Below are positions 2,294 to 26,588 of a stretch of 26,809 bases of DNA, piece after piece; position 1 is the stretch's first letter, and each line of letters begins with the position of its first letter. The notes beneath the pieces were generated by a model. That model was not told where the DNA came from. It did no database searches and worked only from the letters and a program-made list of their open reading frames with translations. Origin of the DNA: Planctomycetota bacterium (GTDB lineage Bacteria; Planctomycetota; B15-G4; JADJEK01); the NCBI GenBank assembly GCA_016795255.1, contig JAEUIB010000679.1:1-26809 (forward strand), given 5' to 3'. The translations under genes and the position numbers were made by a program.

Positions 2294-2400
2294 CGTGAGG
2301 ATTCCGCGCCGGCGGCGACCGGCTGGTCGATGTTCGGCCCCTGGATGCCGCCGGCGCGGAGATCATCGGAGAAAACTCGGAGTCCGTGAAGCGACCGGGC

Positions 2401-3303: not shown

Positions 3304-3364
3304 GGAATCTCCTTCGGCCGCCATCGTGGCGGTGGTTCTGGACCGGGGCGAGAGGGAACTTGGA

Positions 3365-5001: not shown

Positions 5002-5077
5002 CGCGGGGTGGAGCAGCTGGCAGCTCGTCGGGCTCATAACCCGGAGGTCGCAGGTTCGAATCCTGTCCCCGCTACCA
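5002..5077 (+). tRNA. Initiator tRNA-fMet (anticodon CAT)
   Basis: 76 nt; acceptor stem CGCGGGG/CCCCGCT with unpaired C1; three consecutive G-C pairs closing the CTCATAA loop; GGTTCGAATCC T-arm; encoded CCA. Confidence 0.97.
5033..5077 (+). repeat. attL core: 45-bp direct repeat (3' half of tRNA-fMet)
   Basis: CTCATAACCCGGAGGTCGCAGGTTCGAATCCTGTCCCCGCTACCA, identical to 26535-26579. Confidence 0.95.
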
Positions 5078-5087
5078 GACATAACTC

Positions 5088-5124
5088 AAGAGGGGCCGCA
5101 AGTTTGCGGCCCCTCTTTTGTTTT
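5088..5124 (+). terminator. Rho-independent terminator downstream of the tRNA, supplied by the element
   Basis: AAGAGGGGCCGCA-AGTT-TGCGGCCCCTCTT followed by TTGTTTT. Confidence 0.8.
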
Positions 5125-5149
5125 GATCCGGACCCCGAAAACGCGCGTT

Positions 5150-5167
5150 TGTGGAAGAAACGTGGAA
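5150..5167 (+). repeat. 18-bp direct repeat, putative integrase arm-type binding site (left end)
   Basis: TGTGGAAGAAACGTGGAA, identical to 26385-26402; contains GTGGAA twice. Confidence 0.7.
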
Positions 5168-5227
5168 GTGCGCGCGCGAGGGTGACGGTGAAAGCGCGAG
5201 AGACGGTCGCACGGCGGAGCAAACCCC

Positions 5228-6244
5228 GTGGATCGCGTGCATCTGTTCCAGCGTGGCGAAGCGTGGTGGGTCTACTACCTGCTCGACGGTCGTCGCGTGC
5301 GCAAGTCGCTCAAGACCGACAACAAGAAGATCGCCGAAGGCATTCGCGCCGAGCTCGAGGTCAAGCTGAGGCACAGTGAGCTACGCCACGAGCAGCCGCT
5401 GCCGCCCGCTGAATTCATCGAGCGCTTCCACGAGTACCAGCGACCGCGCAAGACCAAGAAGAGCCACGCGACCGATCGCGTCTATCTCGATCGATTGATC
5501 GAGGCGGTTCCGGTGCGTGATCTACGCGAGTTGACCGGCGCGCGCATCTCCGAGTACCTGACGCTGCGAGCGAACAAGGACAAGCTCGCGCCGAAGACGC
5601 TGAATCGCATTCGCCAAGTGGTGGGGACGTTCTTCGAGTGGCTCATCGATCAGGAGCTCTTGCGCGATAACCCGATCCGCCGCGTGAAGCGCTTTCCGGA
5701 GCCGGCGCCGATCATCCGCTACCTGAAGCACGAGCAGATCGACGAGCTGCTCCGGGTCGTCCGCGACGACCGGGTCTATTCGCTCGTCGCGACGCTCGTG
5801 TTCGCGGGACTGCGTCGCTCCGAAGCGCTGTGGCTTCGGTGGGAAGACATCGACCTCGAGCGGAACCTGCTGAGCGTTCGAGCGAAGCGCGACGACGACG
5901 AACGGTGGCAACCGAAGACGAAGCGCAACCGGCTCGTGCCGATTCAGTCACGACTGGCAGCGATACTCCGCGAGCTGCCGAAAACGTCGGGCTGGGTCTT
6001 CACGTCGCCGAAGGGCTGCCGATGGGATCCCGATAATCTCTCACAGCGCTACACGGCCCTCGTCCGTGCGGCGGGCCTGCCGTGGTCACTCTTGGACCTC
6101 CGCCACACGTTCGGCACGATGCTGGCCATGAAAGGCAAGTCGCTTGCGAAGATCGCGGCGGTGATGGGCAACTCGCCCGAGATCTGTCGACGGCACTACG
6201 CGCACATCGCGACGGAGGACCTCCATGTCGACGTTGAGTTCTGA
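5228..6244 (+). CDS. int: Tyrosine recombinase / phage-type integrase
   Basis: N-terminal arm-binding-like segment (WWVYYLLDGRRVRKSLKT), SAM-like core-binding domain, AGLRRSEALWLRWEDID, KTK, LDLRHTFG, MGNS, RRHYAH; directly beside attL. Confidence 0.95.
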   Translation: MDRVHLFQRGEAWWVYYLLDGRRVRKSLKTDNKKIAEGIRAELEVKLRHSELRHEQPLPPAEFIERFHEYQRPRKTKKSHATDRVYLDRLIEAVPVRDLRELTGARISEYLTLRANKDKLAPKTLNRIRQVVGTFFEWLIDQELLRDNPIRRVKRFPEPAPIIRYLKHEQIDELLRVVRDDRVYSLVATLVFAGLRRSEALWLRWEDIDLERNLLSVRAKRDDDERWQPKTKRNRLVPIQSRLAAILRELPKTSGWVFTSPKGCRWDPDNLSQRYTALVRAAGLPWSLLDLRHTFGTMLAMKGKSLAKIAAVMGNSPEICRRHYAHIATEDLHVDVEF

Positions 6245-7262
6245 CGCGCATGTCGCAAGTGGGACGACTGTCGTCGGTGGCGATCGGGATGACGTCGGCC
6301 TAGCGCGAATGGAGTGGTTGGCCGAGGCGGAGTCTCGTTGCTTCGCCTTCGCGGAACGCAAGGAATGGGCCCAGGTCCTCGCGATCTTCGATGACTTTGC
6401 GAATCGACTTGCTGCGAACCGCCGCGATGCAGTGATCGGGTGGTTGCTGTTCGAACTCTGGGCCCTTCACGAGAACTCGAACTATCGCGAGCGAATCCCA
6501 AGAACACCGTTTCGGTTCCTTGCGGTTCTTGTGCACGCTGCGCGGGAGGTCGGCCGTCAGCGTCTTTCGGTGGCGATCGTGGAAGAAGTCCTGCATCGGG
6601 TTTGGGTCGAACAGGACGAGTGGGCGGAACTGCTACCGGCGGCGGGCGATGCTCCGTGTTTTGACGATCTGGTCTTCGACGGCGTCCTCGCTGCGGCAGA
6701 ACTCGGAGAAACCGACGTGGCATCCTCGCTCGGATCGGCGCATGCGGGTGCGCTCCAGGGCGTTGGCGAGTTCCTGCGGTCGTCAACGTTCACCCGCCGC
6801 GCGAACGCAGCGGCGAATCGGGTGCATCGATTGTCAGCAGGAGAGAAAGCAATCGCGGACTACCTCGGAGTCGCTCCGTCGGCCGCGCGCGTCGATGATC
6901 GCCATGTCGTGCTCATCGGTGCGAAGCGAGGCGCGGGGCTGGCGGTGCGGTTCGCCAACGGACGAGTCATCGCGAGCTCGCACCTCCGCCCAATCCTCTT
7001 CACGCTCGCTTCCGCATTCGCGCGTGAATCCGGTTCCGTCGCGACCTTCAAGCACTCAGATCTGCGGGACGTAGTGCCGGCGTGGGCTCGCCTTCGGTCG
7101 ACACCGAAAGACCGCGGCCTCGTAGTGCGAACTTTCAACGCTTTGCGCAAATGCCTCGTCGAAGCCGGCTTCGCTTCGAGCGATCTGAGCTACACGACAA
7201 AGCGTGACACGTACTCACTGAACATGACGCGAATGGGGCTGACCGTGCGAGCGAATCGCTGA
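6225..7262 (+). CDS. Hypothetical protein; helical N-terminus, possible C-terminal winged HTH
   Basis: 345-aa ORF; GGAGG at 6214-6218 is 6 nt before ATG 6225; overlaps the int stop by 20 bp. Confidence 0.6.
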   Translation: MSTLSSDAHVASGTTVVGGDRDDVGLARMEWLAEAESRCFAFAERKEWAQVLAIFDDFANRLAANRRDAVIGWLLFELWALHENSNYRERIPRTPFRFLAVLVHAAREVGRQRLSVAIVEEVLHRVWVEQDEWAELLPAAGDAPCFDDLVFDGVLAAAELGETDVASSLGSAHAGALQGVGEFLRSSTFTRRANAAANRVHRLSAGEKAIADYLGVAPSAARVDDRHVVLIGAKRGAGLAVRFANGRVIASSHLRPILFTLASAFARESGSVATFKHSDLRDVVPAWARLRSTPKDRGLVVRTFNALRKCLVEAGFASSDLSYTTKRDTYSLNMTRMGLTVRANR

Positions 7263-7342
7263 CGACGGATCCATGCCGGCGTGCCGAGGTGCCACACGCG
7301 ACATGCCGACTCAGAGTGGTTGCACACGAGGATTCGCTTCAT

Positions 7343-8002
7343 GTGGACAAGACGGCGCGCGAACTCACGACGACCGTGGTCGAGGACCTGAAGTACTTTC
7401 GCGATGGTTGGACGCCGACCGTTGCCGACGACACGCTGCGGCGGACATCGGCATCCTTGCGCCGATTGCTCATCTACGGCGACTACGGGAACGCGTGGAG
7501 AGCCGCCAGCCTTGCGAAGCAGCCCAGCGTCGAAGCTGTCGATCTCACCGCACGGATCCTCGGACTGGGGTTCAACCCAACCGACATCGACTTCGCTCAG
7601 GCCGGCGGCGGCACGAGTAGCGATGCCGGCATCACGGTGTCCGGGGCGGTGGTCGGGCACAACCTGAGAGAAGATCCTCGTCTCCGCGCAAGCGCGGGAC
7701 CGGTCCGTCGCTCATTCACACTTTCGGAGTTTCGGCCATCGCCGGAGTTGATCGTCGATGGAATGGCGATCGCGCGCGACGCTGTCGTCAAGTTCGTTTG
7801 CAACAAGCTCGGCGGGGCGCACTTCGATCCGGACCGTCCAGGCGAATGGGAACTGCTCGACCATCTCAATGACGGACGGCTTCACGTCGCTGGGCGCCGC
7901 TGCGTTTACTACTCGATTCTCTCGATCGGTCAGGTTCTCGGAAGTTCGCCGCAGACCGTCGACTTCCTACGCCATGCGGAGAGTCAGTTCGGGATCGCAT
8001 AG
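7343..8002 (+). CDS. Hypothetical protein with NKLGGAH motif (possibly HEPN-like)
   Basis: Track ORF 7289..8002; GTG at 7343 follows GAGGA; LRRLL helix and RDAVVKFVCNKLGGAHFD segment. Confidence 0.65.
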   Translation: MDKTARELTTTVVEDLKYFRDGWTPTVADDTLRRTSASLRRLLIYGDYGNAWRAASLAKQPSVEAVDLTARILGLGFNPTDIDFAQAGGGTSSDAGITVSGAVVGHNLREDPRLRASAGPVRRSFTLSEFRPSPELIVDGMAIARDAVVKFVCNKLGGAHFDPDRPGEWELLDHLNDGRLHVAGRRCVYYSILSIGQVLGSSPQTVDFLRHAESQFGIA

Positions 8003-8382
8003 CCGCCGTCGAACATCCGGCCGCGGTCGCACGACGCAGACAAAGCCCTCGCATCGACATCGACGCTGCACGGTTCCTGCCGATCCATGACGCGCGACCT
8101 ATCGGTTGGAAAGACAGCGCAGCTTCGGATTTTCCGGCTTTCCGAGGAATGCTGTGTCCGTCTCTGTGCGCGCAAATCGCCGAACCGAGCGGTTCTTCGA
8201 CTTCGGTCCGCAAACAAATGCGATGTCTCGCGCCGGGTCAGCAGGACCATCCGCGCCACGGTCGTCGTGGGTGCTCCACCCCGCAAATGGAACTGCGCCG
8301 ATCGAGAGGATCCCGGGCCGCTGTTCGAGGGTGGCCCCCGGATGGCGGCTCGGGCTTCCTCGCCTTCTCGGAGATCGAATCG

Positions 8383-8658
8383 ATGACGCACCGACCCTCA
8401 CGCGCTTCGCACGTCGTCGCCCCGGCGGATCGTTCGGGTGCGCTCCCGCAGCTCGTCTCGCTCAAGGAGCTCGCGGATCGGTTCTCGTGCGATCGGTCGA
8501 CGATCGCGCGACGCTTGGCCGCAGCCGGCGTCCGGCCGTACGTTTTCAACGAATCCCGAACCGGATTGAAGCGGTATTCGCTCGACGAGGTCTTGGCGTT
8601 CGTTCGCGAGGCCAAGGGACCGCCGGCGCCGCAGCTCGAACCGAATCGGAGAGACTGA
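8383..8658 (+). CDS. Excisionase/AlpA-like winged-HTH DNA-binding protein (91 aa)
   Basis: LVSLKELADRFSCDRSTIARRL...GLKRYSLDEVLAFV; GGAG upstream of ATG 8383. Confidence 0.75.
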   Translation: MTHRPSRASHVVAPADRSGALPQLVSLKELADRFSCDRSTIARRLAAAGVRPYVFNESRTGLKRYSLDEVLAFVREAKGPPAPQLEPNRRD

Positions 8659-8659
8659 G

Positions 8660-9244
8660 TTGGTCACCGACCCGAAGGTGATCGCTCGGATCGGCGAACT
8701 CCGTCGCGGTGGCGCGACGAAGTCTGGCGCCGCGAAGATTCTCGGTCTCGCTCGCGGCACGATTCGAAAGTTCTGGGACCAACCCGACTCAGACGTCACG
8801 TTGCCGATTGTCCCGATCCCGGCCACTCCTTCGTCAACACCGGACGAACGAACGCGGCAAAGCCCGGATCCGCTTCAGCGCAAGGTGCGCACTCGGCAAG
8901 CAAAGCTCCAACTCCTTCGACTCGAGCGCCAGCGTCGTCACGAACTGCGCGAGCTTCAACGCGAGGAAGATGAGGCGCGGGGCGAAGTCACAGATCGCGA
9001 GGCACTATCGAAGGAAGTGGAGAATCTGCGATCGAAGCTTGCGAGCGAGAGTCGCCGCTGCGCGCAATTCGACGCTGCCGAACGTGAACGGCGCCGGCGT
9101 GTCGAGCTGCGCCGCAATGCGCGCCCGACATCGACGGGCTTCTTCCACTGCGTGCTCTGTTTCGCCCAACACAAGCTGCTCCAGAGCCGCGAACTGAAGT
9201 GCATCGCGTGCGGCGCGCCGCTCGTCCCAGGAGAACATCCATGA
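8660..9244 (+). CDS. HTH - coiled-coil - C4 Zn-ribbon protein
   Basis: N-terminal ATKSGAAKILGLARGTIRKFW (HTH), central R/E/L-rich coiled coil, C-terminal CVLC...CIAC; 1 nt after the previous stop. Confidence 0.7.
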   Translation: MVTDPKVIARIGELRRGGATKSGAAKILGLARGTIRKFWDQPDSDVTLPIVPIPATPSSTPDERTRQSPDPLQRKVRTRQAKLQLLRLERQRRHELRELQREEDEARGEVTDREALSKEVENLRSKLASESRRCAQFDAAERERRRRVELRRNARPTSTGFFHCVLCFAQHKLLQSRELKCIACGAPLVPGEHP

Positions 9245-9435
9245 CCCGAAAGCTCATTCGTCACACCGGAACGTTCGTCTGCGCGGAGTGCGGCAAGTCC
9301 TTCCGCCTCGTCAATGAGGCGAGCTTGAAGTGCGGCGAGGACTTCTGCTCCGGAGTGCTCGAGCCCGCGGATGACGACGAGCGCGACGAGGACGATTTCG
9401 ACGATGACGAGGACGACGAGGACGACGAGGACTGA
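9241..9435 (+). CDS. Small (64 aa) Zn-ribbon protein with highly acidic tail
   Basis: ATGA overlap with the previous gene; CAEC...CGEDFC; C-terminal DDDERDEDDFDDDEDDEDDED. Confidence 0.7.
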   Translation: MTRKLIRHTGTFVCAECGKSFRLVNEASLKCGEDFCSGVLEPADDDERDEDDFDDDEDDEDDED

Positions 9436-9542
9436 CGGTGGGGCGGACACGCGTGAGCTCGACGGGTGATCGTTTTGACCGGCCTGCCGTGGCCAACTTG
9501 CGCAGTTCTTGAACAGCGAACTTGCTGGATTGCGATGTGGCG

Positions 9543-11918
9543 ATGATTTCAGGCGGGGAGCCACAGCAGACACGTGCGGAACTGCTGCCTCAGCATGCGC
9601 AGCTGATCGAGGCTTCCGGAATCGCGTCGGACGTGGCGCTCGAACGCAGATACCGCTCGATCGAGGATCCCGACGAGCTGAAGCGACTCGGCTTTGCTGA
9701 GTCGCAGTGCCGCGTTCCCGGTCTCCTCATTCCGATTCACGACGTTCGCGGCAACGTGACGTTGCATCAGTATCGGCCGGATCGACCGCGCGTGCGCGGG
9801 GCCCGCCCCGTGAAGTATGAGACCCCGAAGGGTGCACGTCTCGTGATCGACGTGCCGCCGCGGGCTCGCTGCGCGATCGACGATCCGGGTGTCGCGCTTC
9901 TCATCACCGAGGGCGCGCGAAAGGCCGATGCGGCGGTTTCGCGAGGTCTGTGCTGCGTTGCGCTGCTCGGAGTATGGGGATGGCGTGGGAAGAGTCCAAC
10001 CGGCGCGTCGATCGTTCTTCCCGACTTCGAGTCGATTCACTTAAAGGGTCGGCGCGTCATCGTCGCGTTCGACAGTGACGTCACGACGAAGCGCGAAGTG
10101 CGAAAGGCGCTCGCTCGACTGCGCGCGTTGCTGTCATCTCGTGGTGCGGTCGTTCAAGTCGTGCTCCTGCCGAGCGGGGCCAACGGTGAAAAGGTTGGGC
10201 TCGACGACTACCTCGTGCAGGGGAAGAGCCTGTCGGACTTGGAGGCGCTTCCAGATCCCGAGCGACCTGAAGGATCGAACGAATCCCAGGCGTCGCAGTG
10301 CTCAGACTCGACGACCGGCGCGATCGCCGAGCGCTTGGTCCAGTTTGCGGCGAACGACGAGCTGTTTCAGGACGAACGAGGAGTCGCGCACGCGGCGGTT
10401 GTCTTGCGCGGCGTCCGCCGGATCGTTCGGCTCGGAACCGAGGACTATCGCCGCGTACTCGCGGGACGGTGCTTCGACACGCTGGGAAAGGTCCCGAGTC
10501 GCGAGGCGACACTCTCCGCGATCCGAGTCTTGGAGTCGAAGGTTCTCCCCGATGGCCTTCGACGGCCCCTACACAATCGGTTCGCAGAGTCTGACGGGGC
10601 GATCTGGATCGACCTCGCCGATGAACGGAACCGCGCGGTTCGAATCGACTCGAAGGGCTGGGCGGTCGTCGAACCGCCCATTCTGTTTCGGAGGCTCGGA
10701 CACCAACGTTCGCTACCGACCCCCGCGCGCGATGGTGACATCGAGTTGCTGCGTCGGTTCGTTCGGCTCGCTTCGCCGAACGATTGGCCGCTCTTGCGCG
10801 CATACGTCGTCAACGCGGCTCACCCGACCGTCCCATTGCCGATCCTGTGTCTGCACGGCGGTAAGGGAACCACGAAGTCCACTGCCGCTGAACTGATTCG
10901 CGCACTGCTCGATCCGTCGATCGCAAGACACCTCGAGATGGCCGACAGGCTCGCAGAGTTGGCGCAACAGCTCGACCATCACGCCGTGCCAGTCTTCGAC
11001 AACGTTTCGAGCCTTCCTCAGAGCATCGGTGACTTGCTGTGCAAAGCGGCGACGGGCGGCACGTTCTCGAAGCGGCAGCTCTTCACCGACGACGACGACT
11101 GCTTCTTCAACCTCAAGTGTTCGCCGATCCTCACGTCGATTGTCCTGCCGACGCGGCAAACCGACCTACTCGATCGGATCATCGACTTTGAGTTCACCGA
11201 GGTGCCCCCGCGCGAGAGACGCGAACGAGCCGCTCTTATGGAGGAGTTCGAAGCATTGAAGCCGCGAATCTTCGGGGGGATCCTCGACCTGCTCGTCGGC
11301 GCGCTCGCGATTCATCCCACGCTTCCGGAGTTCGATCTCCCGCGCATGGCTGACTTCGCGCGTTGGGCAGCCGCCGTGAACGTCGCTGCGGGCGGAACTG
11401 AGCGCGAGCTGCTCGAGAATCTTCAACGAAACGTGGCGGTGCGCGAGGGACACGTCCTCGACTGCGAGCCGTTGCTGCACGCGATCATCGGGTTGGTCGA
11501 CGATTCGGGCGGACACTGGCGAGGTACGGCGACTCAACTCTTGGAGACTCTGTACCGGCGCGACGGCCGCCGAAGCGGCAACCAGGGCCTGCCGCGAAAC
11601 ATCAACGCACTCTCGCGGCAGTTGCGTGAGTTCAAGCAGACTCTCGCAGCGCTCGGCGTCGAAATCGCGTTCTCGGCTTCGCACCACAATGGACGCCCGA
11701 TCGAACTCACGAAGCTCGTGTCACGATCGAATGCGTCCGAATCGTCCCGAATTGCGGAAGTTGAGAACAGGCCGGGTATCACGGCGGGCATGGGAGCTCG
11801 ACGGAGCAATGAATGCGTCCCGAGCAACGTCCGCGAAAGCTCGCGGCCGAACGGCGCGATACGGGCGTTCAGGCCGCCGGACGGATCGGACGATATCGGT
11901 GCGGGCCGCGACAGTTGA
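9543..11918 (+). CDS. Primase-helicase replication protein (DUF3854/Toprim-like primase + SF3-like AAA+ helicase)
   Basis: LLITEGARKADA, VIVAFDSD, KVGLDDYL (Toprim); LHGGKGTTKST (Walker A), VPVFDNVS (Walker B), DLLDRII (Arg finger). Track ORF starts 9522 (TTG); in-frame ATG at 9543. Confidence 0.85.
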   Translation: MISGGEPQQTRAELLPQHAQLIEASGIASDVALERRYRSIEDPDELKRLGFAESQCRVPGLLIPIHDVRGNVTLHQYRPDRPRVRGARPVKYETPKGARLVIDVPPRARCAIDDPGVALLITEGARKADAAVSRGLCCVALLGVWGWRGKSPTGASIVLPDFESIHLKGRRVIVAFDSDVTTKREVRKALARLRALLSSRGAVVQVVLLPSGANGEKVGLDDYLVQGKSLSDLEALPDPERPEGSNESQASQCSDSTTGAIAERLVQFAANDELFQDERGVAHAAVVLRGVRRIVRLGTEDYRRVLAGRCFDTLGKVPSREATLSAIRVLESKVLPDGLRRPLHNRFAESDGAIWIDLADERNRAVRIDSKGWAVVEPPILFRRLGHQRSLPTPARDGDIELLRRFVRLASPNDWPLLRAYVVNAAHPTVPLPILCLHGGKGTTKSTAAELIRALLDPSIARHLEMADRLAELAQQLDHHAVPVFDNVSSLPQSIGDLLCKAATGGTFSKRQLFTDDDDCFFNLKCSPILTSIVLPTRQTDLLDRIIDFEFTEVPPRERRERAALMEEFEALKPRIFGGILDLLVGALAIHPTLPEFDLPRMADFARWAAAVNVAAGGTERELLENLQRNVAVREGHVLDCEPLLHAIIGLVDDSGGHWRGTATQLLETLYRRDGRRSGNQGLPRNINALSRQLREFKQTLAALGVEIAFSASHHNGRPIELTKLVSRSNASESSRIAEVENRPGITAGMGARRSNECVPSNVRESSRPNGAIRAFRPPDGSDDIGAGRDS

Positions 11919-11953
11919 GTCGGACGATATCGGTGCGGGCCGCGACAGTTGAG
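11886..11953 (+). repeat. Perfect tandem duplication, 2 x 34 bp, spanning the primase stop
   Basis: TCGGACGATATCGGTGCGGGCCGCGACAGTTGAG at 11886-11919 and 11920-11953. Confidence 0.9.
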
Positions 11954-12095
11954 ATGGAGTGACGGAACGGGCAGTGTTGCCCGTCCGATCTCCAGTGTCG
12001 TCGTTCAAAGGGCGAGGCATAGGGCAGGGCATCACGATCGGCGTTGCAGTGACGCTGTTGCAAACTGCGGTGTCACTTCCTAGCCTGCGAGGCTG

Positions 12096-12536
12096 ATGCG
12101 CAAGAGCGTGCTCCAGACAATCGCGACGTGGGTCTGCCTCGTTGCCTATGCGCTGACCGGCGCCATCGCCGGGGCCCATGCCGTCGTGTTGTGCGTCGGC
12201 CCGAATGGACACGTTGAGTTCGAACTCTCCGCGGGCGCTCCGTGCGGCGGCTGCGGAGTCGAAAGTTGGCCGGAGCTCGGTACCGAGCCGGTCTCGCTCA
12301 TCTCGAGCGCTTCGGCGTCGCAATGTCCGTGCGTCGACATTCCGATCGCGATCGGATCGTCGGGACCACAGGCGCAAGCGCCGAACAACGACTCCCTGAA
12401 GCACGTCGTCATCGCCTACGCGGCGGTTGAGACGTTGCGGTTGGCTTTCCCCGTCCGTTGCGAGCCGGTCGCCGCGCTTCGCGATCCGCAACCTCCGCTG
12501 ATCGCGAATCTGCGGACGGTTGTCCTTCTCGTCTAG
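12096..12536 (+). CDS. CzcI/DUF2946-like Cys/His-containing protein preceding the czc operon
   Basis: N-terminal hydrophobic segment, LCVGPNGHVEFE, CGGC, CPCVD, C-terminal LRTVVLLV; first gene of the metal cassette. Confidence 0.6.
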   Translation: MRKSVLQTIATWVCLVAYALTGAIAGAHAVVLCVGPNGHVEFELSAGAPCGGCGVESWPELGTEPVSLISSASASQCPCVDIPIAIGSSGPQAQAPNNDSLKHVVIAYAAVETLRLAFPVRCEPVAALRDPQPPLIANLRTVVLLV

Positions 12537-12668
12537 CCGAACCCGATCCGAGACCCGCAGCCCGCTGCACGCTCATGCGTGCGCATAGCGAGCTGTTCGT
12601 GGCATCGCGCTTTTGTCGCGATTCGCCGCGCGTGCGTTCGGTCCCAGAGTTTCGGTCGAGAGGGTCAC

Positions 12669-15388: not shown

Positions 15389-15402
15389 TCCGGAGACCCG
15401 AC

Positions 15403-18687: not shown

Positions 18688-18691
18688 CGTG

Positions 18692-20902
18692 ATGACGCGC
18701 GTCGTCTTCGACATCAAAGGCATGGACTGCGCGGACGAGGCGATCCTCCTGCGCAAGACTCTCGGTGACGTCGCGGGCGTTGCCGAAGTCACTCCGAACG
18801 TCGTCGAGCGCAGCCTCGCTGTCGTGTTTCGGGATGACCAGACGAGTTCGGTGAAGATCGTTGAGGCCATCGCAACAACTGGAATGTCGGCCGTGGTCAG
18901 AACTGGCGCACAAGCTACGGCGCCAGCAGCAACGACTCACTCGGAGCTGCGCAGGGCTCTGCTCGCGGGCCTCGGTGCGGCGGCTTTGCTGACGGGGCTC
19001 TCGTTCCACGCGAGTCGCATTGGCTGGGCGACAGCACTTCTTCACGGAGGGGAGAGCACTCCGCCGCTGTTGAGTCGGGGGCTCTACGTCGTCGCGATCG
19101 TGCTGGCGGGGTGGTTCGTCGCGCCGCGCGCTTGGGCGGGAATTCGAGGGCTTCGCCCCGATATGTACGTGCTCATGACGATCGCCGTCGTCGGGGCGGT
19201 CGCGATCGGCGAATGGCTCGAGGCCGCGACGGTCACAGTGCTCTTCTCGACGTCGCTCGCGCTCGAAGCGTGGACGGTCGGAAGAGCACGCGATGCGATC
19301 GGCGCGTTGACCGCGCTGACGCCCCAACGTGCGCGCGTCATTCGCGACAAGGGACGCGAAGACCTCGTCGGTGTGGAGTCCGTCGCACCGGGTGAGCGAG
19401 TCTTGGTGAAAACGGGAGAGCAGATCCCGTTGGACGGAACCGTTCTCGCCGGGGAATCGAGCGTGAATCAGGCTCCCATCACTGGCGAGTCGGTTCCCGT
19501 TCCGAAGGGTCCAGGCGACGAGGTTCTCGCCGGCACGATCAATCACGACGGAGTTCTCGAAGTCGAAGTCGTGAGGCCTGCCGGTGAGAGCACGCTCGCG
19601 CGCGTGTCGAAGCTCGTCAGCGATGCTCAGGCGAAGCGGTCGCCATCCGAACAGTGGGTCGAACGGTTCGCGGCGATCTACACGCCTGCGGTGCTCGCGC
19701 TCGCGGCGCTCGTCGCGATCGTTCCGCCATTGGTCGTCGGGAACTTCCGCGCGTGGCTCTACGAGGCGCTCTCGCTGCTCGTGATCGCGTGTCCGTGTGC
19801 GCTCGTGATTTCGACGCCCGTGAGCATGGTCGCGGCACTCGTCGCTGCCGCGAGGCGCGGCGTGCTGGTGAAGGGCGGTGAGTTCCTCGAGCGCCTCGCT
19901 TCGGTTCGGGCCGCGGCGTTCGACAAGACCGGGACGCTCACGGTCGGACGTCCCGAGGTCGAGGAAGCGCATGCGTTGGCCGGCCACGACGAACGCCAGT
20001 TGCTCGAGATCGCGTTGTCCATCGAACGTCGGTCGGAGCACCCGCTCGCACAAGCGATCGTGGCGTACGCCGAGCAGAAAGGCATCGAGTCGCCTCCGGT
20101 GGACGACTACGTCGCCGTCAGCGGCAAGGGAGCGGAAGCGCGGCGGTCGGGGCGCCCCGTCTGGGTTGGTTCGTTGCGCTTTGCGACGCAAAAGGCCGGT
20201 GTCGAGCCCGAGCGCGACCGAGTCGTTGCCGAGCGCGCCGCTGGTGGAGGCAGCGTCGTCCTCGTCGGGGAGGAAGATCACACGTGCGGGTTCATCCTGC
20301 TGCGCGACCGCATGCGTGCCGACGTTCCGGACGCGCTGAAGCGGCTCCGAACGTTCGGTGTTTCCCGACTCGTGATGCTGACCGGCGACAACCGTCCAAC
20401 GGCTGAGGCGATCGGGAAGGAAAGCGGCGTCGACGAAATCCGAGCCGAGTTGCTGCCCGCGCAGAAGGTGGAGAACATCGAAGCGCTCGTCGCCGAGCAC
20501 GGGTCCGTCGCCATGGTTGGGGACGGAGTGAACGATGCGCCAGCATTGGCCCGCGCAAGCGTCGGAATTGCAATGGGGGCGGCGGGTAGTGCATCGGCAC
20601 TCGAGACAGCGGACATTGCCTTGCTGTCCGATCAGTTTTCGCGACTTCCGTGGCTCCTCGAGCACGCACGTCGAACGCTTCGCATCGTTCGACAGAACAT
20701 CGTTGCCTCGCTTGTTGTCAAGGCAGCGTTCGTCGCACTCGCTCTGTTCGGCAACGCGACGCTCTGGGCCGCAATCGCGGCCGACATGGGTGTATCGCTT
20801 GCCGTCGTCTTCAACGCCCTCAGGCTTCTCGTAGACGGCTCACCATCGGTGATCGGCTCCGAGAGCTCGGCGTCCGGACTCGCCCCAGGTTCCTCGTCAT
20901 GA
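18692..20902 (+). CDS. zntA: Zn/Cd/Pb-translocating P1B-type ATPase (ZntA/CadA-like)
   Basis: N-terminal GMDCADE metal-binding domain, TGESVP, ACPCAL, DKTGT, SEHPLA, MLTGD, GDGVNDAP; TM7 Lys and TM8 ADMG fit the P1B-2 subclass. GTG at 18689 is an alternative start. Confidence 0.92.
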   Translation: MTRVVFDIKGMDCADEAILLRKTLGDVAGVAEVTPNVVERSLAVVFRDDQTSSVKIVEAIATTGMSAVVRTGAQATAPAATTHSELRRALLAGLGAAALLTGLSFHASRIGWATALLHGGESTPPLLSRGLYVVAIVLAGWFVAPRAWAGIRGLRPDMYVLMTIAVVGAVAIGEWLEAATVTVLFSTSLALEAWTVGRARDAIGALTALTPQRARVIRDKGREDLVGVESVAPGERVLVKTGEQIPLDGTVLAGESSVNQAPITGESVPVPKGPGDEVLAGTINHDGVLEVEVVRPAGESTLARVSKLVSDAQAKRSPSEQWVERFAAIYTPAVLALAALVAIVPPLVVGNFRAWLYEALSLLVIACPCALVISTPVSMVAALVAAARRGVLVKGGEFLERLASVRAAAFDKTGTLTVGRPEVEEAHALAGHDERQLLEIALSIERRSEHPLAQAIVAYAEQKGIESPPVDDYVAVSGKGAEARRSGRPVWVGSLRFATQKAGVEPERDRVVAERAAGGGSVVLVGEEDHTCGFILLRDRMRADVPDALKRLRTFGVSRLVMLTGDNRPTAEAIGKESGVDEIRAELLPAQKVENIEALVAEHGSVAMVGDGVNDAPALARASVGIAMGAAGSASALETADIALLSDQFSRLPWLLEHARRTLRIVRQNIVASLVVKAAFVALALFGNATLWAAIAADMGVSLAVVFNALRLLVDGSPSVIGSESSASGLAPGSSS

Positions 20903-20916
20903 CTTTGGAGACTTCC

Positions 20917-21255
20917 ATGCTGTCGATGCTTCCTCGCTCGGTCCTGATGGTCGCCGCAATCCTCTTCGCGCTCGGTTGCTCCAAGGACAATCACAGCCAC
21001 GGAGACAGCCACGATCACGATCACTCTCACGACGAGCCGCACGCGAGCGCGACCGCTGAACCGGGCTCGTACGAAGACTGGTGCGGAGGACATGGTGTCC
21101 CTGAATCAAAGTGCACGCGCTGCAATTCAGCGCTCGTCGCCTCGTTCAAGGCGAACAACGATTGGTGCGCGGAACACGAGCTGCCCGCGTCGCAATGCGT
21201 GAAGTGCGATCCCAACCGGAAGGCGATCCGCCCGCCGAAGCCGGCTGGCAAGTAA
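20917..21255 (+). CDS. Small His-rich lipoprotein with duplicated WCxxHxxPxSxCxxC motif (putative metal-binding protein)
   Basis: GGAG RBS before ATG 20917 (alternative ATG 20899 overlaps the ATPase stop); lipobox ALGC; NHSHGDSHDHDHSHDE; DWCGGHGVPESKCTRC and DWCAEHELPASQCVKC. Confidence 0.8.
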   Translation: MLSMLPRSVLMVAAILFALGCSKDNHSHGDSHDHDHSHDEPHASATAEPGSYEDWCGGHGVPESKCTRCNSALVASFKANNDWCAEHELPASQCVKCDPNRKAIRPPKPAGK

Positions 21256-21286
21256 CGCGGCTCCCAGCAATGTGGCCGAACCAGCG

Positions 21287-21547
21287 ATGAAGAGGTCAAG
21301 GAGGCCGGCAACACAAGGCAAGTCGCTCGGCGTACGGTCGTCGCAGCGCGAACTACTCCGCCTCACGGTAATCACCGGCGCGGTCGCCCTACTGATCGAT
21401 CTGGGTGCCGCGGCCCACGCCATCGACGCGTATCGGACGGACGGTGAGTTCTGCCTCGAAATACGACTCAGCCTCTTGGGTGCCTTCTTCACTGTGTACG
21501 CAGCCTATACAGCGCGCGGCTGGTGGAGAGCCAAGCACACGAAGTAG
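21287..21547 (+). CDS. Possible small two-TM membrane protein
   Basis: 86-aa ORF 31 nt after the lipoprotein stop, two hydrophobic segments; no family recognised. Confidence 0.3.
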   Translation: MKRSRRPATQGKSLGVRSSQRELLRLTVITGAVALLIDLGAAAHAIDAYRTDGEFCLEIRLSLLGAFFTVYAAYTARGWWRAKHTK

Positions 21548-21632
21548 CATCCGCACGAATACGCGCCTTCAGAGTGATCGGTCGGGACTTCCTCACCCGC
21601 CAGCCGCCGTAGATGACAGCGGCATTGACTTA

Positions 21633-23525
21633 CTATGTCCCTGGGCGTTCTACCGAAATACCGGCACTCTCGAGCAGGCCGTACAGGCTCCCGATCGATT
21701 CGCGGCCTTGGACAGCGTTGGTACCGTTCCTTCCCGTAGGTCGCACGCCGCTAAACGTAAACACAACGCGCTGTTTCGCTCTGGACAGAGCGACGAAAAA
21801 CCCGCACGTTTCCTCAGTTCGGTTCCCTGCAAACCCGAAGTGCGCACTGTCCTCAAGGCCAATGAATATGACAGTATGATACTCGAGCCCCTTACTCTTG
21901 TGGGTTGTCATGATAGGAACAGTTCCCACACCTTCAACGTCGTCGACCGCCGCCGACCAAGAGTTGGTTTGCAGCGCCGCAGTGAGCGCCTTCGAGAGTC
22001 GGTCGCTCGTATCCCGATAAAACGTGCCCTGCTGGTATCGCTGGTTTATCGACTTAAATGCGGCTTCGCCCAGGAACTGGATTACCTCGTTTACCACCTG
22101 CGCAAGGTCGCGCTCGGTTTTCCCGTAGACATCGAGCCGCTGCTTGAAAGCGGCGCACCATAGGACGAGACGGTCCACCTCAACTCGCATTGATTCGTCC
22201 GAACTGTCACCGCCAAGTTCGGACAGCAGCTGCAATGTCCGCGCCCAAGATTCTGGAGCTCGATCTTGAAGCGCCAACTTGAGCATATCGAGGACCGCGA
22301 CAGTGAGCGGTTCGGCAAGCAGGTCTTGCAACTCGTTCTCGAAGCGGGAGCGAACCCCCTCTATTCGCAGAGCTTCTTGGAGCTTTTGCGTGTAAATCGG
22401 CGGCTTCATCCGGCATAGCACGCAAATCTCGCGAGGGGGAACCAGATCAACCTTGACCAGGTTCGCAACGAGCCGAGCAACCTGCACGGCCTCTTCGGCG
22501 TCATCCGCAAACGACAGAATGCGGCACTCGCCTGGCTCGCGCTGATCGGAACCGAATGGGGTTGCCTCGGTGCTCGTGGGATCCAACGCCTTCGCGACCA
22601 CCGATTGGACGCGGACTAGCGCACCGGCAGAGCGGTAGTTCCGCGTAAGGCGAATCGTTCCTGCGGCGAAGTGTTCAACGAAGTACTTGAACACATTATT
22701 CAGCGCGCCCGCCCACCCCATGATGCGTTGCTTATCGTCGCCAACGGCTGTCAATACGGTCGGCGATCCGTGAAAGGCTCGATGTATTAGACGATAGTGA
22801 ATCGTGGTTGTGTCCTGGAACTCATCCAAGAACACATAACGATAAGTTGCACGCACCGCGAGGAGTACCTGCGGATTCATGCGCAACAAGTGTTCGGCCA
22901 GCTGTCCGAGCATCGAGAAGCTCAGAACCGATTTCGAGCGACTATGAAGCAAGTACCGCCACAAGTCCCCCGCAATCACGTCCTCGTGTGTCGCGTTCAC
23001 CCAAGTTCCGCTGACCGGAAGGGTCCGACCAAATGCACGTCTGACGCCATCTGTGCTCATCGCTGCTCGATCAGTGTTAGACACCGACGACGGAACCGAC
23101 TGAATCAGCTCCCTAAGCTGCCGATCGTAGAATAGCTCATGGTCGATGACAAAGTTCTCCGTTGGTTGGAACGCTGGAGGGAGTGCGGCACGAAAGTGGT
23201 CGACCAGCGATTTGGAAAGCGCATCGAACGTGTACGAGTCGAACCGTCGAGACCCCAAGACTCCGCAGCGACGCTCCACGCGCTCGGCGAGGTTACGCGC
23301 AGCGTCGCGCTTAAAACTTATCGCAAGAATGCGAGCCGGATCGGGACAGATCATGGTCTGTAGCAAGTAACACGCGCGCTGGGCCAGCAGTTCGGTTTTG
23401 CCGGCTCCCGGACCGGCAATGACCAACGTGGTCGAGGCGCTCCGGACCGCTTCCTCCGCGGCGGGCTCGAGCCCCTCCACGTCAATGGGTCGCCAGTTGG
23501 CCGCGAGCGCTTTACGACTTGGCAT
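21633..23525 (-). CDS. gajB: UvrD/Rep SF1 helicase, Gabija GajB-like
   Basis: AGPGAGKT, FLDEFQD, VGDDKQRI, NYRS, MTTHKSKGLEY, FVALSRAK; start overlaps the OLD nuclease end by 14 bp. Confidence 0.8.
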   Translation of the reverse strand: MPSRKALAANWRPIDVEGLEPAAEEAVRSASTTLVIAGPGAGKTELLAQRACYLLQTMICPDPARILAISFKRDAARNLAERVERRCGVLGSRRFDSYTFDALSKSLVDHFRAALPPAFQPTENFVIDHELFYDRQLRELIQSVPSSVSNTDRAAMSTDGVRRAFGRTLPVSGTWVNATHEDVIAGDLWRYLLHSRSKSVLSFSMLGQLAEHLLRMNPQVLLAVRATYRYVFLDEFQDTTTIHYRLIHRAFHGSPTVLTAVGDDKQRIMGWAGALNNVFKYFVEHFAAGTIRLTRNYRSAGALVRVQSVVAKALDPTSTEATPFGSDQREPGECRILSFADDAEEAVQVARLVANLVKVDLVPPREICVLCRMKPPIYTQKLQEALRIEGVRSRFENELQDLLAEPLTVAVLDMLKLALQDRAPESWARTLQLLSELGGDSSDESMRVEVDRLVLWCAAFKQRLDVYGKTERDLAQVVNEVIQFLGEAAFKSINQRYQQGTFYRDTSDRLSKALTAALQTNSWSAAVDDVEGVGTVPIMTTHKSKGLEYHTVIFIGLEDSAHFGFAGNRTEETCGFFVALSRAKQRVVFTFSGVRPTGRNGTNAVQGRESIGSLYGLLESAGISVERPGT

Positions 23526-25539
23526 CGCTCTTGGTGGCAGGCGGCGACAACGCTGCTCTTATGCGCGCGACGAAACGCGGGAGAACTGAAGGAGGACTCC
23601 GTCGCAGCTCTGCGTCAGAGAGCTTTGAAAGCGCAAGAATGTGCGTAGTCGGCTTTCCACGACCAAGGAACAAGTACCGGTACCAAAAGAACTCTCTCAA
23701 GTCCTCAGCGCTGTATAACCCAGCAGGCAATTCAACATCACCTAGGACCGCTTTTGTCGCGGAGGCCAGCGCCGCCTTGTACTTGTCCTCATCGTCAGGG
23801 ATTCGTGGACCGTCACCGCCATCCGCGGTCCCGCGATACGTAGTTGGGAATGCGCGGAGCATGGCGAAGTCGAGGTCGAGCGGCTCCGAAAAGAAGACGC
23901 CGAAGCGTTCGAGGTGATCGATCCAGGGCTTGAGCTCGCTAGCGTCACCAACGGCCAACGTGTGCATCTCCGCGAGCTCCTCGACCGTCCACGTTTCCGT
24001 TCCGTCTCCCTTGAGGGCAAGAACAGAATCAGCAGGGACGCCCAACTCGATCAGCTGCTGAAGGGCATACTTGATCCGTCCCCAGCCCCCGCCATTGCGC
24101 CCCGCATCAAGGTCGAGAAGCGTCGCATACGGGATCTGTAGCGCACTAAGTAAGCGCCAAAAGTGGTTGACGTGCCTTCCGCCGAGCGGCGCAACGGAAA
24201 CAAAGCTGGAGTCGATCGGCACATCTAGCGCAGAAGCAAGGCGCGGTAGCACGATTTCCTCGCTATCACCTTCGCCAAGAGCGACGAACTTTGCGAAATA
24301 GAGTTCAGGGTAGGCTCTGACTGCCTCGCGCACGAATTTGAGTGCGGCGGATCTTTCTGGAGGCAGGGTGATCGCGCAAACAACAGTGATGCGCTCGGCA
24401 CGTGTCGTTCGAAAATACCGAACTTCCTCGGGCTCTACGCGCGCCAAGATGGACGGCGAGTGACTCGAAAGCAAGACCTGACTGCGCATCAGAGTGCTGT
24501 GCTTACGCAGAGCGACGATGATGCGACCAAGATAATGTGGTGCGACGTGGTTTTCCGGTTCTTCGACCGCGATGATGTTGAGAATTGGGATGGCAAGCGC
24601 TTCCTTGGACAGCGCCTCCGTCTCGGCGGACGCAACTGCTTCCTGAACGTCGAACAGGGCAGTTACGATGGCAAGATAGAACAGAGATCGTTCCCCGTCA
24701 CTTAGTCGTTCGATGGGGTCTTCGGGTCCGGCAGGTCCGGGGCTGAAAGTCGCCTCGACCTGACGCAGCAGGTCTTCGAGGCGCCGTGCGAGGGGGCGGA
24801 TAGATACGTCGCGGTGTTCCGGCGCGTCATGTAACTGCGACCATCGAGCGACAACCGCACCCTGAATTAGCTTGACTCCGTCCTCAGAACCGAAAGTGTC
24901 TCGGATCGAGTCGGACGCTTCAGCGATCTCGTTGCGACCAGCTTCGGTCCAGTTGACGGACCGAAGTAGTACATGAAGCAGTGACCCGGAGACGTTCTTG
25001 ATCTGTCGGTCTGGATCGCGAGCGGCCGGTACGTAGTGGACGTGTATGCGGGCCCGCTCGTGCCCATGTACACGACTAGTCTTTTCGTCTTTCGCAGGGG
25101 TACCGTTGGGGCTCGAGATCCAGAGGAGTTCCTGCTCAGTCTCTCCCTCCGCGAGATTGCTCTGTTGCCACTTTCCTACGAGGCGAATCCGGCAATAGGG
25201 CGCCTCGCCAGCGGCGCCAACGGTCATGTGCTTGAAGCAAGCCGCGGGTGCATCAGCGCCGTTTCCTGCCGCGAGCTCGGGAAATACCAACTGCGCTTCG
25301 AGCGAAAGCGCTGCCTGGTCGACTTTGTCCCATTCTGTGCCGGGTGGAAGATAGAAATCCTCGCGAACTAGCGTCCGTTCCGCTTGCGAGAGACCAAATA
25401 GACGGCTGAGCGCTTGAAGCGCGGCTGATTTGCCAGAACCGTTCGCCCCGATAAATGTGGTCAAGTCGCCGAGGTGGATCACCTGGGACTCGGGACCAAA
25501 ACAGCGAAAGCCCGTGAGCGTAAGAGTGGAGATTCTCAC
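23512..25539 (-). CDS. gajA: OLD-family ATP-dependent nuclease (ABC ATPase + Toprim), Gabija GajA-like
   Basis: MRISTLTLTGFRCF start (GTG 25539; track ORF extends to 25650), GANGSGKS, LSDGERS signature, VEEPENH, SSHSP H-loop, Toprim GEGDSEE and LLDLD. Confidence 0.85.
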   Translation of the reverse strand: MRISTLTLTGFRCFGPESQVIHLGDLTTFIGANGSGKSAALQALSRLFGLSQAERTLVREDFYLPPGTEWDKVDQAALSLEAQLVFPELAAGNGADAPAACFKHMTVGAAGEAPYCRIRLVGKWQQSNLAEGETEQELLWISSPNGTPAKDEKTSRVHGHERARIHVHYVPAARDPDRQIKNVSGSLLHVLLRSVNWTEAGRNEIAEASDSIRDTFGSEDGVKLIQGAVVARWSQLHDAPEHRDVSIRPLARRLEDLLRQVEATFSPGPAGPEDPIERLSDGERSLFYLAIVTALFDVQEAVASAETEALSKEALAIPILNIIAVEEPENHVAPHYLGRIIVALRKHSTLMRSQVLLSSHSPSILARVEPEEVRYFRTTRAERITVVCAITLPPERSAALKFVREAVRAYPELYFAKFVALGEGDSEEIVLPRLASALDVPIDSSFVSVAPLGGRHVNHFWRLLSALQIPYATLLDLDAGRNGGGWGRIKYALQQLIELGVPADSVLALKGDGTETWTVEELAEMHTLAVGDASELKPWIDHLERFGVFFSEPLDLDFAMLRAFPTTYRGTADGGDGPRIPDDEDKYKAALASATKAVLGDVELPAGLYSAEDLREFFWYRYLFLGRGKPTTHILALSKLSDAELRRSPPSVLPRFVARIRAALSPPATKSDAKS

Positions 25540-25682
25540 TAACGTCAGTTCCCCTTGCGTATGCAAAACGCTGTGCTCGACGACAAACCGAGATCTGGAG
25601 CCGCTAGCGCGGTGGGAGCCTTGCGTGGCGCCGACGTTCGTGATCCCCAATAGCCGCTAGCAGCCAAACGGAAACTCAAGGG

Positions 25683-26306
25683 TTAGACCATTGACCAAAG
25701 GCCACTGATGACACGTGTATTCATCTTGGCGTTCTTGATGGTCGATTGGCGAGGCGCGCGTCCGGTAATAGTCCAAGCGCCGGCGAGGTCATGAAACTCG
25801 TACTGTTTGCTCGAAGTCGTCAAGCCACCCTGCGAATGGACCCATTGAGCGATTTCAAGCACCCGGCGCGCTTCATCCGCGTCAGCTTCTTGGCCCGTGA
25901 AATTCATGAAATGGAAGCCTAAGACGCCGGAATCGACGGCCGCCAGATCGGCAGTTGTCTTGATTGTCACTCCATGACTCACGTGCGTTATGGTCGAAGC
26001 GCTGTGCACGCGGAGCTTCCTTGCTGCAAGCTGCAAGCTGGTGAAGGCATCGAGTGCGCGCTCGTTGTTGGTCACCTTGTGGCGAGGGGCTGAGCTTGCC
26101 TGCAAGTTGCGAGTCGCCGCCGTTAGTACGTGGGGGTCATTGCCCGAGGCGAAGTAGGCCCTGATCGCTAGACGCGCCGGCTGATAGTACAGGATCTGGA
26201 ATAGTGCGGGGATTGCGGATGATCGCTTCTGACCGGCAAGGATCCGCATCTGATGCGTGATCGGCATCCCGATGAATTCTGCAAGTGCGCGAGATGTGAT
26301 CTTCAT
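25683..26306 (-). CDS. Hypothetical protein (207 aa) upstream of and co-oriented with the OLD/UvrD pair
   Basis: ATG at 26306 with GAGGGGG upstream; globular-looking sequence MKITSRALAEFI...ISGLWSMV. Confidence 0.7.
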   Translation of the reverse strand: MKITSRALAEFIGMPITHQMRILAGQKRSSAIPALFQILYYQPARLAIRAYFASGNDPHVLTAATRNLQASSAPRHKVTNNERALDAFTSLQLAARKLRVHSASTITHVSHGVTIKTTADLAAVDSGVLGFHFMNFTGQEADADEARRVLEIAQWVHSQGGLTTSSKQYEFHDLAGAWTITGRAPRQSTIKNAKMNTRVISGLWSMV

Positions 26307-26384
26307 CAACGGCGGTCCCCCTCTTCGGCGAAAGCGCCGTAGCGTACGCGTGTCGCTGAGCCGGCGCAATCTTCGCCATTGACG

Positions 26385-26402
26385 TGTGGAAGAAACGTGG
26401 AA
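26385..26402 (+). repeat. 18-bp direct repeat, putative integrase arm-type binding site (right end)
   Basis: TGTGGAAGAAACGTGGAA, identical to 5150-5167. Confidence 0.7.
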
Positions 26403-26534
26403 TCATGCCGCCGAAAAGGCCGAACATGCCGAACTCGAGCGGCCTCTCGGTGGCGTGCGCAAGCCTTGCGTGGATCCTGGTTTCGAAGCAAGTGACGACA
26501 AGATCCGTGGTTGCGGCGGAGGACTGTCCCGCCA

Positions 26535-26579
26535 CTCATAACCCGGAGGTCGCAGGTTCGAATCCTGTCCCCGCTACCA
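26535..26579 (+). repeat. attR core: 45-bp duplicate of the tRNA-fMet 3' half
   Basis: Identical to 5033-5077; identity begins at the first base of the anticodon loop. Confidence 0.95.
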
Positions 26580-26588
26580 ACACAACCG

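Follow-up and report, generated by a model that had tools for sequence, protein, structure and literature searches.

The window considered here, the whole stretch of 26,809 nucleotides of contig JAEUIB010000679.1 (assembly GCA_016795255.1), is one entire contig (C451) of the fragmented metagenome-assembled genome (MAG; 899 contigs, 84% completeness) of a wastewater planctomycete, and most of it is taken up by a 21.5-kb island integrated at a tRNA gene. The integration target is a tRNA-Met(CAT) gene (5002-5077, plus strand; ARAGORN; Rfam, 59 bits), whose sequence shows three G-C pairs (GGG/CCC) at the base of the anticodon stem and a mismatch at 1:72 (C1:U72), and which is therefore an initiator tRNA gene, tRNA-fMet. 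The island is delimited by a perfect direct repeat of 45 bp that extends from the anticodon loop to the CCA end of the tRNA and whose copies are 100% identical, the attL core at 5033-5077 and the attR core, found by direct-repeat search, at 26535-26579 (both plus strand). The 3' 45 nt of the tRNA-fMet come from the attL copy of the island, and the same repeat also ends the island in two independent metagenome contigs of the Joint Genome Institute (JGI). An earlier note on this DNA had described a complete island with perfect att repeats in tRNA-fMet, and this description holds: the island, whose integrase and Rep genes are intact, is complete and discrete and is not a decayed prophage or integrative and conjugative element (ICE).

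Just inside the left end, an island-borne hairpin followed by a T-run (5088-5117, plus strand) takes the place of the tRNA's own terminator, and in empty sites an analogous hairpin lies directly 3' of the tRNA. Both ends of the island also carry, just inside, a copy of an 18-bp arm-type repeat (5150-5167 and 26385-26402, plus strand), a candidate arm-binding site of the integrase, and two such copies appeared in 0 of 100 shuffles. The repeat is exactly kept in a sibling element, L002, despite differing surrounding bases. The 42 exact matches to the 18-bp site in JGI metagenome contigs were discarded as chance, none of them being related to the island.

Backbone genes and cargo of the island

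The choice of open reading frames (ORFs) was guided by the G+C content at third codon positions (GC3), and the ORFs were compared with four profile libraries, Pfam, PHROG, NCBIfam and PADLOC. Adjoining the tRNA gene and facing inward, the first gene encodes a tyrosine integrase of 338 residues (5228-6244, plus strand; Pfam Phage_integrase, 5e-19; phrog_1, 3e-55), as had been claimed. The nearest homologues of this integrase come from Planctomycetota MAGs, and the catalytic R, K, R and Y positions are kept across its planctomycete-rich clade. The whole clade is devoid of both canonical histidines, with L/M/F-x-x-R at the HxxR motif and GN at the GH motif.

Two accessory genes follow. The start of the first, orf345 (6225-7262, plus strand), overlaps the stop of the integrase gene, and when 1.84 billion cluster representatives were searched exhaustively with HMMER, only the protein itself and a 347-residue protein of the sibling (E 3e-4) were returned. 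This lineage-specific protein is possibly a regulator, the Atlas structure search giving only weak hints of a winged helix-turn-helix (HTH) or BTAD-like fold. The second, orf237 (7289-8002, plus strand), is an orphan with no counterpart in the sibling and no family match in the profile libraries, and the Atlas search was uninformative.

Next comes a gene for a small HTH protein of at most 123 residues (8287-8658, plus strand; start possibly at 8383), which matches phrog_66, annotated as "excisionase and transcriptional regulator," at 8e-6 and which is a candidate excisionase or AlpA-like regulator. Distant relatives of the island have HTH_17 genes at the same position. The same protein was also tried, and rejected, as a small terminase (TerS), the two PHROG small-terminase matches covering the HTH alone (profile positions 10-66 of 183) in a protein that does not exceed 123 residues. 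It is followed by the HTH-zinc and zinc-acidic genes that the earlier note had recognized. The first of these, orf194 (8660-9244, plus strand), encodes a predicted DNA-binding protein that, in its AlphaFold2 (AF2) model, consists of an N-terminal three-helix HTH, an 84-residue helix and a C-terminal CxxC...CxxC zinc ribbon; compared with BFVD, the fold matches of this model span the HTH alone, with no small terminase or TerS-like match, and a word-index search found only a near-identical copy in a JGI contig. The second gene encodes a 64-residue zinc-ribbon protein with a poly-Asp/Glu tail (9241-9435, plus strand).

The largest backbone gene, placed after these small ORFs as had been proposed, encodes Rep (9522-11918, plus strand), a protein of 798 residues with a DUF3854 (TOPRIM) primase part, a helicase part of the superfamily 3 (SF3)/D5 type and a C-terminal helical domain. 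The DUF3854 match in Pfam reaches 74.8 bits against a cut-off of 23, the Walker A motif is conserved in 23 Rep homologues, and the AF2 model built from a 23-sequence alignment has a mean predicted local distance difference test (pLDDT) score of 82.5. In Foldseek comparisons with the Protein Data Bank (PDB), the N-terminal half resembles the RNA-polymerase/TOPRIM domains of DnaG (2au3, 5guj), and the C-terminal half resembles SF3/D5-type helicases, among them the PrimPol of African swine fever virus (ASFV), phage NrS-1, E5 of monkeypox virus (MPXV), Cch of SCCmec and the primase-helicase of SaPI5 (7ola), while a PDB profile search with the Rep alignment gave P-loop noise only. The modelled protein is thus best described as the fusion of a TOPRIM primase of the DnaG type with an SF3/D5-type helicase, an architecture like those of P4 alpha and of the SaPI proteins. 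No sequence-family match of Rep to P4 alpha was obtained, and the domain architecture is shared by fold; the domain logic of Rep is, we assume, that of P4 gp-alpha. A perfect tandem duplication of 2 x 34 bp (11886-11953, plus strand) spans the stop codon of rep, with a hairpin next to it near 11965-11987, and could mark a replication origin.

The remaining part of the island, about 14 kb, is cargo. It begins with orf146 (12096-12536, plus strand), a small Cys/His-rich protein that heads the metal module and has a 35% identical homologue adjoining another att-like repeat in the related genome G010. A metal-efflux operon of the resistance-nodulation-division (RND) type follows (12579-18687, plus strand), composed of CzcC-, CzcB- and CzcA-like genes (12579-14069, 14066-15388 and 15403-18687; Pfam OEP, HlyD_D23 and ACR_tran, the last at 1019 bits), and then a P1B-type heavy-metal ATPase of the Zn/Cd/Pb class with an N-terminal HMA domain (18689-20902, plus strand; TIGR01525, 3e-175; Pfam) and a small Cys-rich ORF with only weak zinc-ribbon-type hints in Pfam (20917-21255, plus strand). 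On the minus strand lie the two genes of a Gabija defence system, adjacent and overlapping: gajB (21633-23525; PADLOC, 2e-198) encodes a UvrD-type helicase, and gajA (23512-25539; PADLOC, 2e-239), annotated at 675 residues in other assemblies, encodes an OLD-type ATPase with a TOPRIM domain. Upstream of gajA, a gene for a PD-(D/E)XK-fold protein (25683-26306, minus strand) was recognized in the Atlas structure search, with TM scores of 0.7-0.8 to PDDEXK_1/Cas4-like clusters. This Cas4/RecB-like gene stays with Gabija in all copies of the island, which suggests a three-gene Gabija variant. The pairing of heavy-metal resistance with anti-phage defence, which the earlier note had put forward, is thus confirmed by the CzcCBA, P1B ATPase and Gabija genes. 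The G+C content is 0.63-0.65 in the backbone and the metal genes, 0.58 in the Gabija part and 0.71 in the left flank.

Across the four libraries, none of the tested ORFs matched a capsid, portal, large terminase, tail, relaxase, coupling protein or type IV secretion system (T4SS) family, in agreement with the earlier statement that transfer and packaging genes are absent. Backbone and cargo account for all 21.5 kb, which is not the make-up of a prophage, and the ORFs hold no relaxase, coupling protein, T4SS or recognizable oriT by which an ICE or an integrative and mobilizable element (IME) would be identified.

Outside the island, the left flank (38-4939, minus strand) carries two large fusion proteins containing sigma-70 region 4 around a transpeptidase/class-D beta-lactamase-like gene. 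It changes fast between strains, with a divergence of 1-5% and differences clustered near 4060-4100.

Sibling element, empty sites and wider family

The closest homologue of Rep (55% identity) is encoded on Logan contigs from four runs, which carry the sibling element L002. At their start these contigs have the final 30 nt of this tRNA, then the replacement terminator known from the island and its 18-bp arm site in identical form, and their gene order is integrase (93% identical), 347-residue protein (22% identical to that of orf345), HTH protein (73%), 197-residue HTH/zinc protein (52% identical to that of orf194), 64-residue zinc-ribbon protein (84%) and Rep. The cargo of the sibling consists of a type I restriction-modification (R-M) system and a protein of 1758 residues. 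The same backbone with different cargo at tRNA-Met, for which the earlier note had advised a search, is therefore found in this element.

An empty site was likewise found. In two genomes of the same genus that represent other species, G001 and G002, the left flank is syntenic and 80-86% identical and the tRNA-fMet is identical, with no second att copy or integrase within the next 15-20 kb. The terminator hairpin that directly follows the tRNA in G002 is orthologous to the right flank of the window directly after attR, which makes G002 an orthologous empty site; G001 also has no island at its tRNA-fMet.

The tRNA-fMet gene is used beyond the genus. Extra partial copies of its 3' end occur in G013, G022, G027, G010, G011 and G024, all genomes of the host's order, at spacings of 3.4-33 kb, and the site is therefore an integration hotspot. 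The 33-kb spacing belongs to an island in G013 (C24, 120112-153221) whose integrase is 37% identical to that of the window, and the integrase on G011 contig C401 is 54% identical; another such locus lies in G022 (C7, 364365-367884), and the further contigs are C90 of G027, C179 of G010 and C81 of G024.

Full-length relatives of Rep (32-42% identical) are encoded in MAGs of Acidobacteriota, Chloroflexota, Actinomycetota, Armatimonadota and Planctomycetota, and within the host's order they occur in 5 of 42 genomes. One relative, an island of 12.1 kb, lies between copies of a 45-bp tRNA-Lys repeat and carries an R-M system besides its integrase, two HTH_17 genes and Rep, and another is an island of about 14.7 kb at tRNA-Asp. 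Other relatives with an integrase, HTH_17 and DUF3854 carry NACHT, SMODS or ScoMcrA cargo, and one whose integrase is 51% identical to that of the window has the order integrase, 535-residue protein, 71-residue protein and DUF3854 plus DUF927. Of the families among 76 neighbouring ORFs at six further loci, Phage_integrase occurs most often and the 25 commonest include none for virions or conjugation; housekeeping genes lie within 7 kb. Because these neighbourhoods are compact, the backbones are not pieces of larger prophages or ICEs, an outcome that the earlier note had named as one that would speak against a separate element; the relatives are instead compact tRNA islands of 12-15 kb.

A different kind of locus was met on contig L251 (1-9500), where a shorter integrase, 54% identical to that of the window, adjoins a long array of co-oriented ORFs that have no Pfam matches and are phage-structural-like; this array may represent a temperate phage lineage of the same hosts.

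Within the literature searched, DUF3854 is mentioned in only seven papers, none of them with a description of integrative islands, and the family of DUF3854-Rep islands appears to be undescribed as such. The proposal of an undescribed family was accordingly right in that no match to a described satellite family was found, but the kind of element is known from tycheposons, from integrative mobile elements that are encapsidated in virions (VEIMEs) and from "Type C" clusters that resemble phage-inducible chromosomal islands (PICIs).

Recent spread between species and nature of the element

A second species carries the island on a 57-kb JGI contig, Ga0558119_03908 (L235). Compared with the window, this copy has 0 mismatches over 5228-12000 and 3 over 17000-26580, whereas its left flank is 99.2% identical to G001, which has no island, and 84-87% identical to the flank of the window. 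In four Logan runs from four studies, the island contigs show 0-1 differences each over about 15 kb (99.9-100% identity), and the flank contigs, listed for three of the four runs, differ by 1-5%. About 10 studies of wastewater or activated sludge contributed the DNA runs, at least 16 in number, in which the sequence is present, and the same island structure recurs in independent assemblies from at least 10 studies. Because the backbone is identical while the flanks diverge, these comparisons support a recent movement of the island between species.

The copies do vary in one place. Variation between copies that are otherwise identical (L235, L252 and L253) is confined to the metal module (12600-21000 of the window). 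In two JGI contigs its czc and ATPase parts are about 7-8% divergent, carry many indels and have their ORFs fragmented; the divergence could reflect real decay or exchange, or a consensus of mixed strains.

Taken together, the segment is most simply read as an intact, recently transferred, site-specific integrative element that would replicate by itself and would be unable to move between cells alone, a reading to which we assign a probability of roughly two in three. Several observations weigh against it. In the Logan assemblies, the contigs break inside the att repeat, and the linkage of flank and island there is judged from similar depth alone. The copy in the second species is without the 150 bp that lie between the tRNA and the integrase gene in the window (5078-5227), and the right flank of its contig differs from the G001 sequence downstream of the tRNA, being 75% identical to another locus of G002 and containing a dispersed repeat of about 100 bp; an extra rearrangement or a tandem element in this contig therefore has to be assumed. 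A small probability also remains that the contig is a chimeric metagenome assembly, although its flank-island join is not at a shared repeat, which speaks against a chimera. The depth of island words relative to flank words is about 0.8-1.3, that is, about single-copy, with no excess of copy number in bulk communities. As to the replication and regulatory genes, the putative origin consists of one tandem duplication, and the HTH_17 (E 0.02) and DUF1441 matches of the small HTH protein are sub-threshold. Two claims of the earlier note stand only in part for the same reasons: the Xis-like gene is backed by phrog_66 but not by these families, and the repeat-hairpin origin has its duplication and hairpin, but a search of intergenic DNA in the window and in the sibling turned up no iterons, and the duplication, present in the identical JGI copy, is absent from the sibling.

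At the junction in L235 (9990-10010), the CCA end of the tRNA is followed by one base and then by the start codon of the integrase, and the next 6.8 kb are 100% identical to the window; the 150-bp deletion removes the replacement terminator, a palindrome and the left arm site. The dispersed repeat, seen on L252 at 1973-2082 (365-474 of the right flank beyond attR), has dozens of copies, 85-94% identical, in G000, G001 and G002 and looks like a repetitive extragenic palindromic (REP) or miniature inverted-repeat transposable element (MITE)-like element of the genus.

It might also be supposed that a larger prophage or ICE left the island behind as an immobile remnant, or that assembly or binning produced it as an artefact, given that the window is a whole contig of a MAG in 899 pieces and that the 150 bp upstream of the integrase gene are missing from one copy. 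This is very improbable: the island has perfect att repeats and intact integrase and rep genes, the structure returns in the independent assemblies, the identical backbone sits in different flanks, and tRNA repeats likewise bound the sibling and the distant relatives, which are just as compact.

Likeness to known systems and mode of transfer

If the island is a self-replicating integrative element, its life cycle can be outlined from its parts. The inward-facing tyrosine integrase would recombine the 45-bp core that forms the 3' part of tRNA-fMet and is flanked by the matched 18-bp arm sites, and the island would restore the tRNA end and supply the replacement terminator, with the small HTH protein as the probable directionality or regulatory factor. 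The excised circle would be copied by its own P4-alpha-like TOPRIM primase-SF3 helicase. Because the island has no virion, conjugation or relaxase genes, its transfer would require an outside vehicle, most likely a phage capsid. The slot for cargo is variable, filled here by CzcCBA, the Zn/Cd-type P1B ATPase and Gabija with the PD-(D/E)XK protein, and in the sibling by type I R-M.

The order integrase, regulators, HTH protein, primase/helicase and cargo is that of P4-like and PICI satellite cores, as the earlier note had remarked, and the comparison of integrase, regulator and primase/helicase supports it. With P4, the island shares a tRNA-sited integrase, a defence hotspot and, as judged by fold, probably the architecture of gp-alpha (TOPRIM primase, SF3 helicase and C-terminal domain), but the backbone ORFs contain no homologues of Psu, Delta, Sid or Epsilon in PHROG or Pfam, and the host belongs to another phylum. 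With PICIs, including the Staphylococcus aureus pathogenicity islands (SaPIs), it shares a core of integrase, HTH protein (here a candidate AlpA/Xis-like one) and primase-replicase, site-specific integration at a tRNA and a Rep whose helicase fold matches the SaPI5 primase-helicase; it differs in having no small terminase, Ppi, Cpm, Rpp, capsid gene or recognizable Stl-type repressor, and its 21.5 kb are owed to the cargo. Judged by its recognizable genes, the island thus lacks the defining hijack features of both P4-like satellites and PICIs. In SatelliteFinder, clusters consisting of integrase, AlpA and primase alone are called "Type C" and treated as ambiguous (PMC10085698), and the island, which has the integrase and the primase-replicase of a PICI and no packaging or hijack gene, would at best be such a cluster.

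It is nevertheless conceivable that the island is a true phage satellite, of which a helper phage induces the excision and replication and which is packaged in helper capsids, the orphan genes serving as the module for sensing and hijacking the helper. Besides the core order and the SaPI5-like fold of Rep, its defence cargo in a variable slot resembles the hotspots of P4 and PICIs (PMC9122126), and integrative elements that are packaged in virions and have no capsid gene are documented in the VEIMEs, which are defined by concatemers found inside virions (PMC9618062). VEIMEs share with the island an integrase, a primase/helicase, an AlpA/excisionase gene (in the island a candidate one), cargo like R-M or abortive infection systems and the absence of a major capsid gene, the difference being that the island is known here from its sequence. 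The spread between species requires some vehicle, and conjugative helpers look scarce, VirB4, the T4SS ATPase, being found in 0 of 13 related genomes. On the other hand, neither a small terminase nor a capsid-remodelling, Psu, Sid, Delta, Ppi or portal-like gene was found, two exact probes of the backbone had no match in IMG/VR, an HK97 capsid gene turned up in just 1 of the 13 related genomes, the host MAG having none, the size of 21.5 kb exceeds that of most PICIs, and relatives of the full-length type in cultured collections are mostly borne by plasmids (32 records) and seldom by phages (3). We regard this explanation as possible but doubtful. The dependence on a helper phage that the earlier note had suggested did not find support, there being no recognizable hijack or packaging gene, no match in IMG/VR and a depth of about one copy per genome. 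A broader proposal would group the island with its relatives as phage satellites of one family that spans phyla and has not been described, with a hijack module made up entirely of lineage-specific orphans (here orf345, orf194 and the zinc-ribbon/acidic protein); we consider it rather unlikely.

Alternatively, the island may be an integrating, plasmid-like episome or a tycheposon-type island that spreads free of phages, by vesicles, by transformation or by mobilization through the conjugation of another element. Its Rep points in this direction, since two DUF3854 proteins, CyRepA1 and CyRepA2, are experimentally validated initiators of plasmid replication in cyanobacteria, each sufficient for that replication in experiments (PMC10079941); like the island Rep they have an N-terminal DUF3854 and a C-terminal helicase domain, although they act on free plasmids and their relation to it is at the level of domains only. 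In reference collections, relatives of the helicase half lie on 32 plasmid records against 3 phage records, the plasmids being mostly small, non-mobilizable ones of Streptomyces, Methylobacterium and Methanothrix, and in IMG/VR many contigs carry one or both Rep domains. A large adaptive metal cargo is also atypical for satellites.

The layout of the island is that of the tycheposons, which are enriched in vesicles, carry cargo for zinc homeostasis and phage interference, among other functions, and have tRNA-Met(CAT) as one of their targets (Hackl et al., 10.1101/2020.12.28.424599). Both have an inward-facing, tRNA-targeting tyrosine integrase at the tRNA-proximal end and repeats of a partial tRNA, a small replication module (primase/helicase and Xis, the latter a candidate in the island) beside the integrase, variable adaptive or defence cargo and no capsid or conjugation genes. 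They differ in that tycheposons live in marine picocyanobacteria and the island in wastewater Planctomycetota, that the island Rep is of the DUF3854/TOPRIM-SF3 type, and that the island is known from sequence; the likeness is one of layout. The absence of a relaxase, a recognizable oriT and partition or copy-control genes, the lack of a T4SS ATPase in the 13 relatives and a depth that shows no extrachromosomal excess all speak against a plasmid-like episome, which seems an unlikely account of the whole.

The counts of HK97 capsid genes and VirB4 among the related genomes do not by themselves discriminate between these explanations. For a self-replicating integrative element of this kind, phage capsids would still most likely be the single carrier, because the architecture fits, the VEIMEs provide a precedent and the 13 relatives have no T4SS ATPase.

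In Planctomycetota, where very few mobile elements have been characterized, the island provides an example of gene flow whose boundaries are well defined: one module moves heavy-metal resistance together with anti-phage defence between species in wastewater plants worldwide. Excision, replication and the identity of the carrier could be studied experimentally in this element, which offers an identical backbone in diverged hosts, a sibling with exchanged cargo and an empty site. If the carrier is a phage, satellites would be extended to new phyla, and their hijack functions would reside in orphan genes, which tools based on marker genes, such as SatelliteFinder, would be expected to miss. Should the satellite family be real, it would shuttle defence systems and large adaptive operons, such as those for metal efflux, between species in engineered and soil ecosystems.

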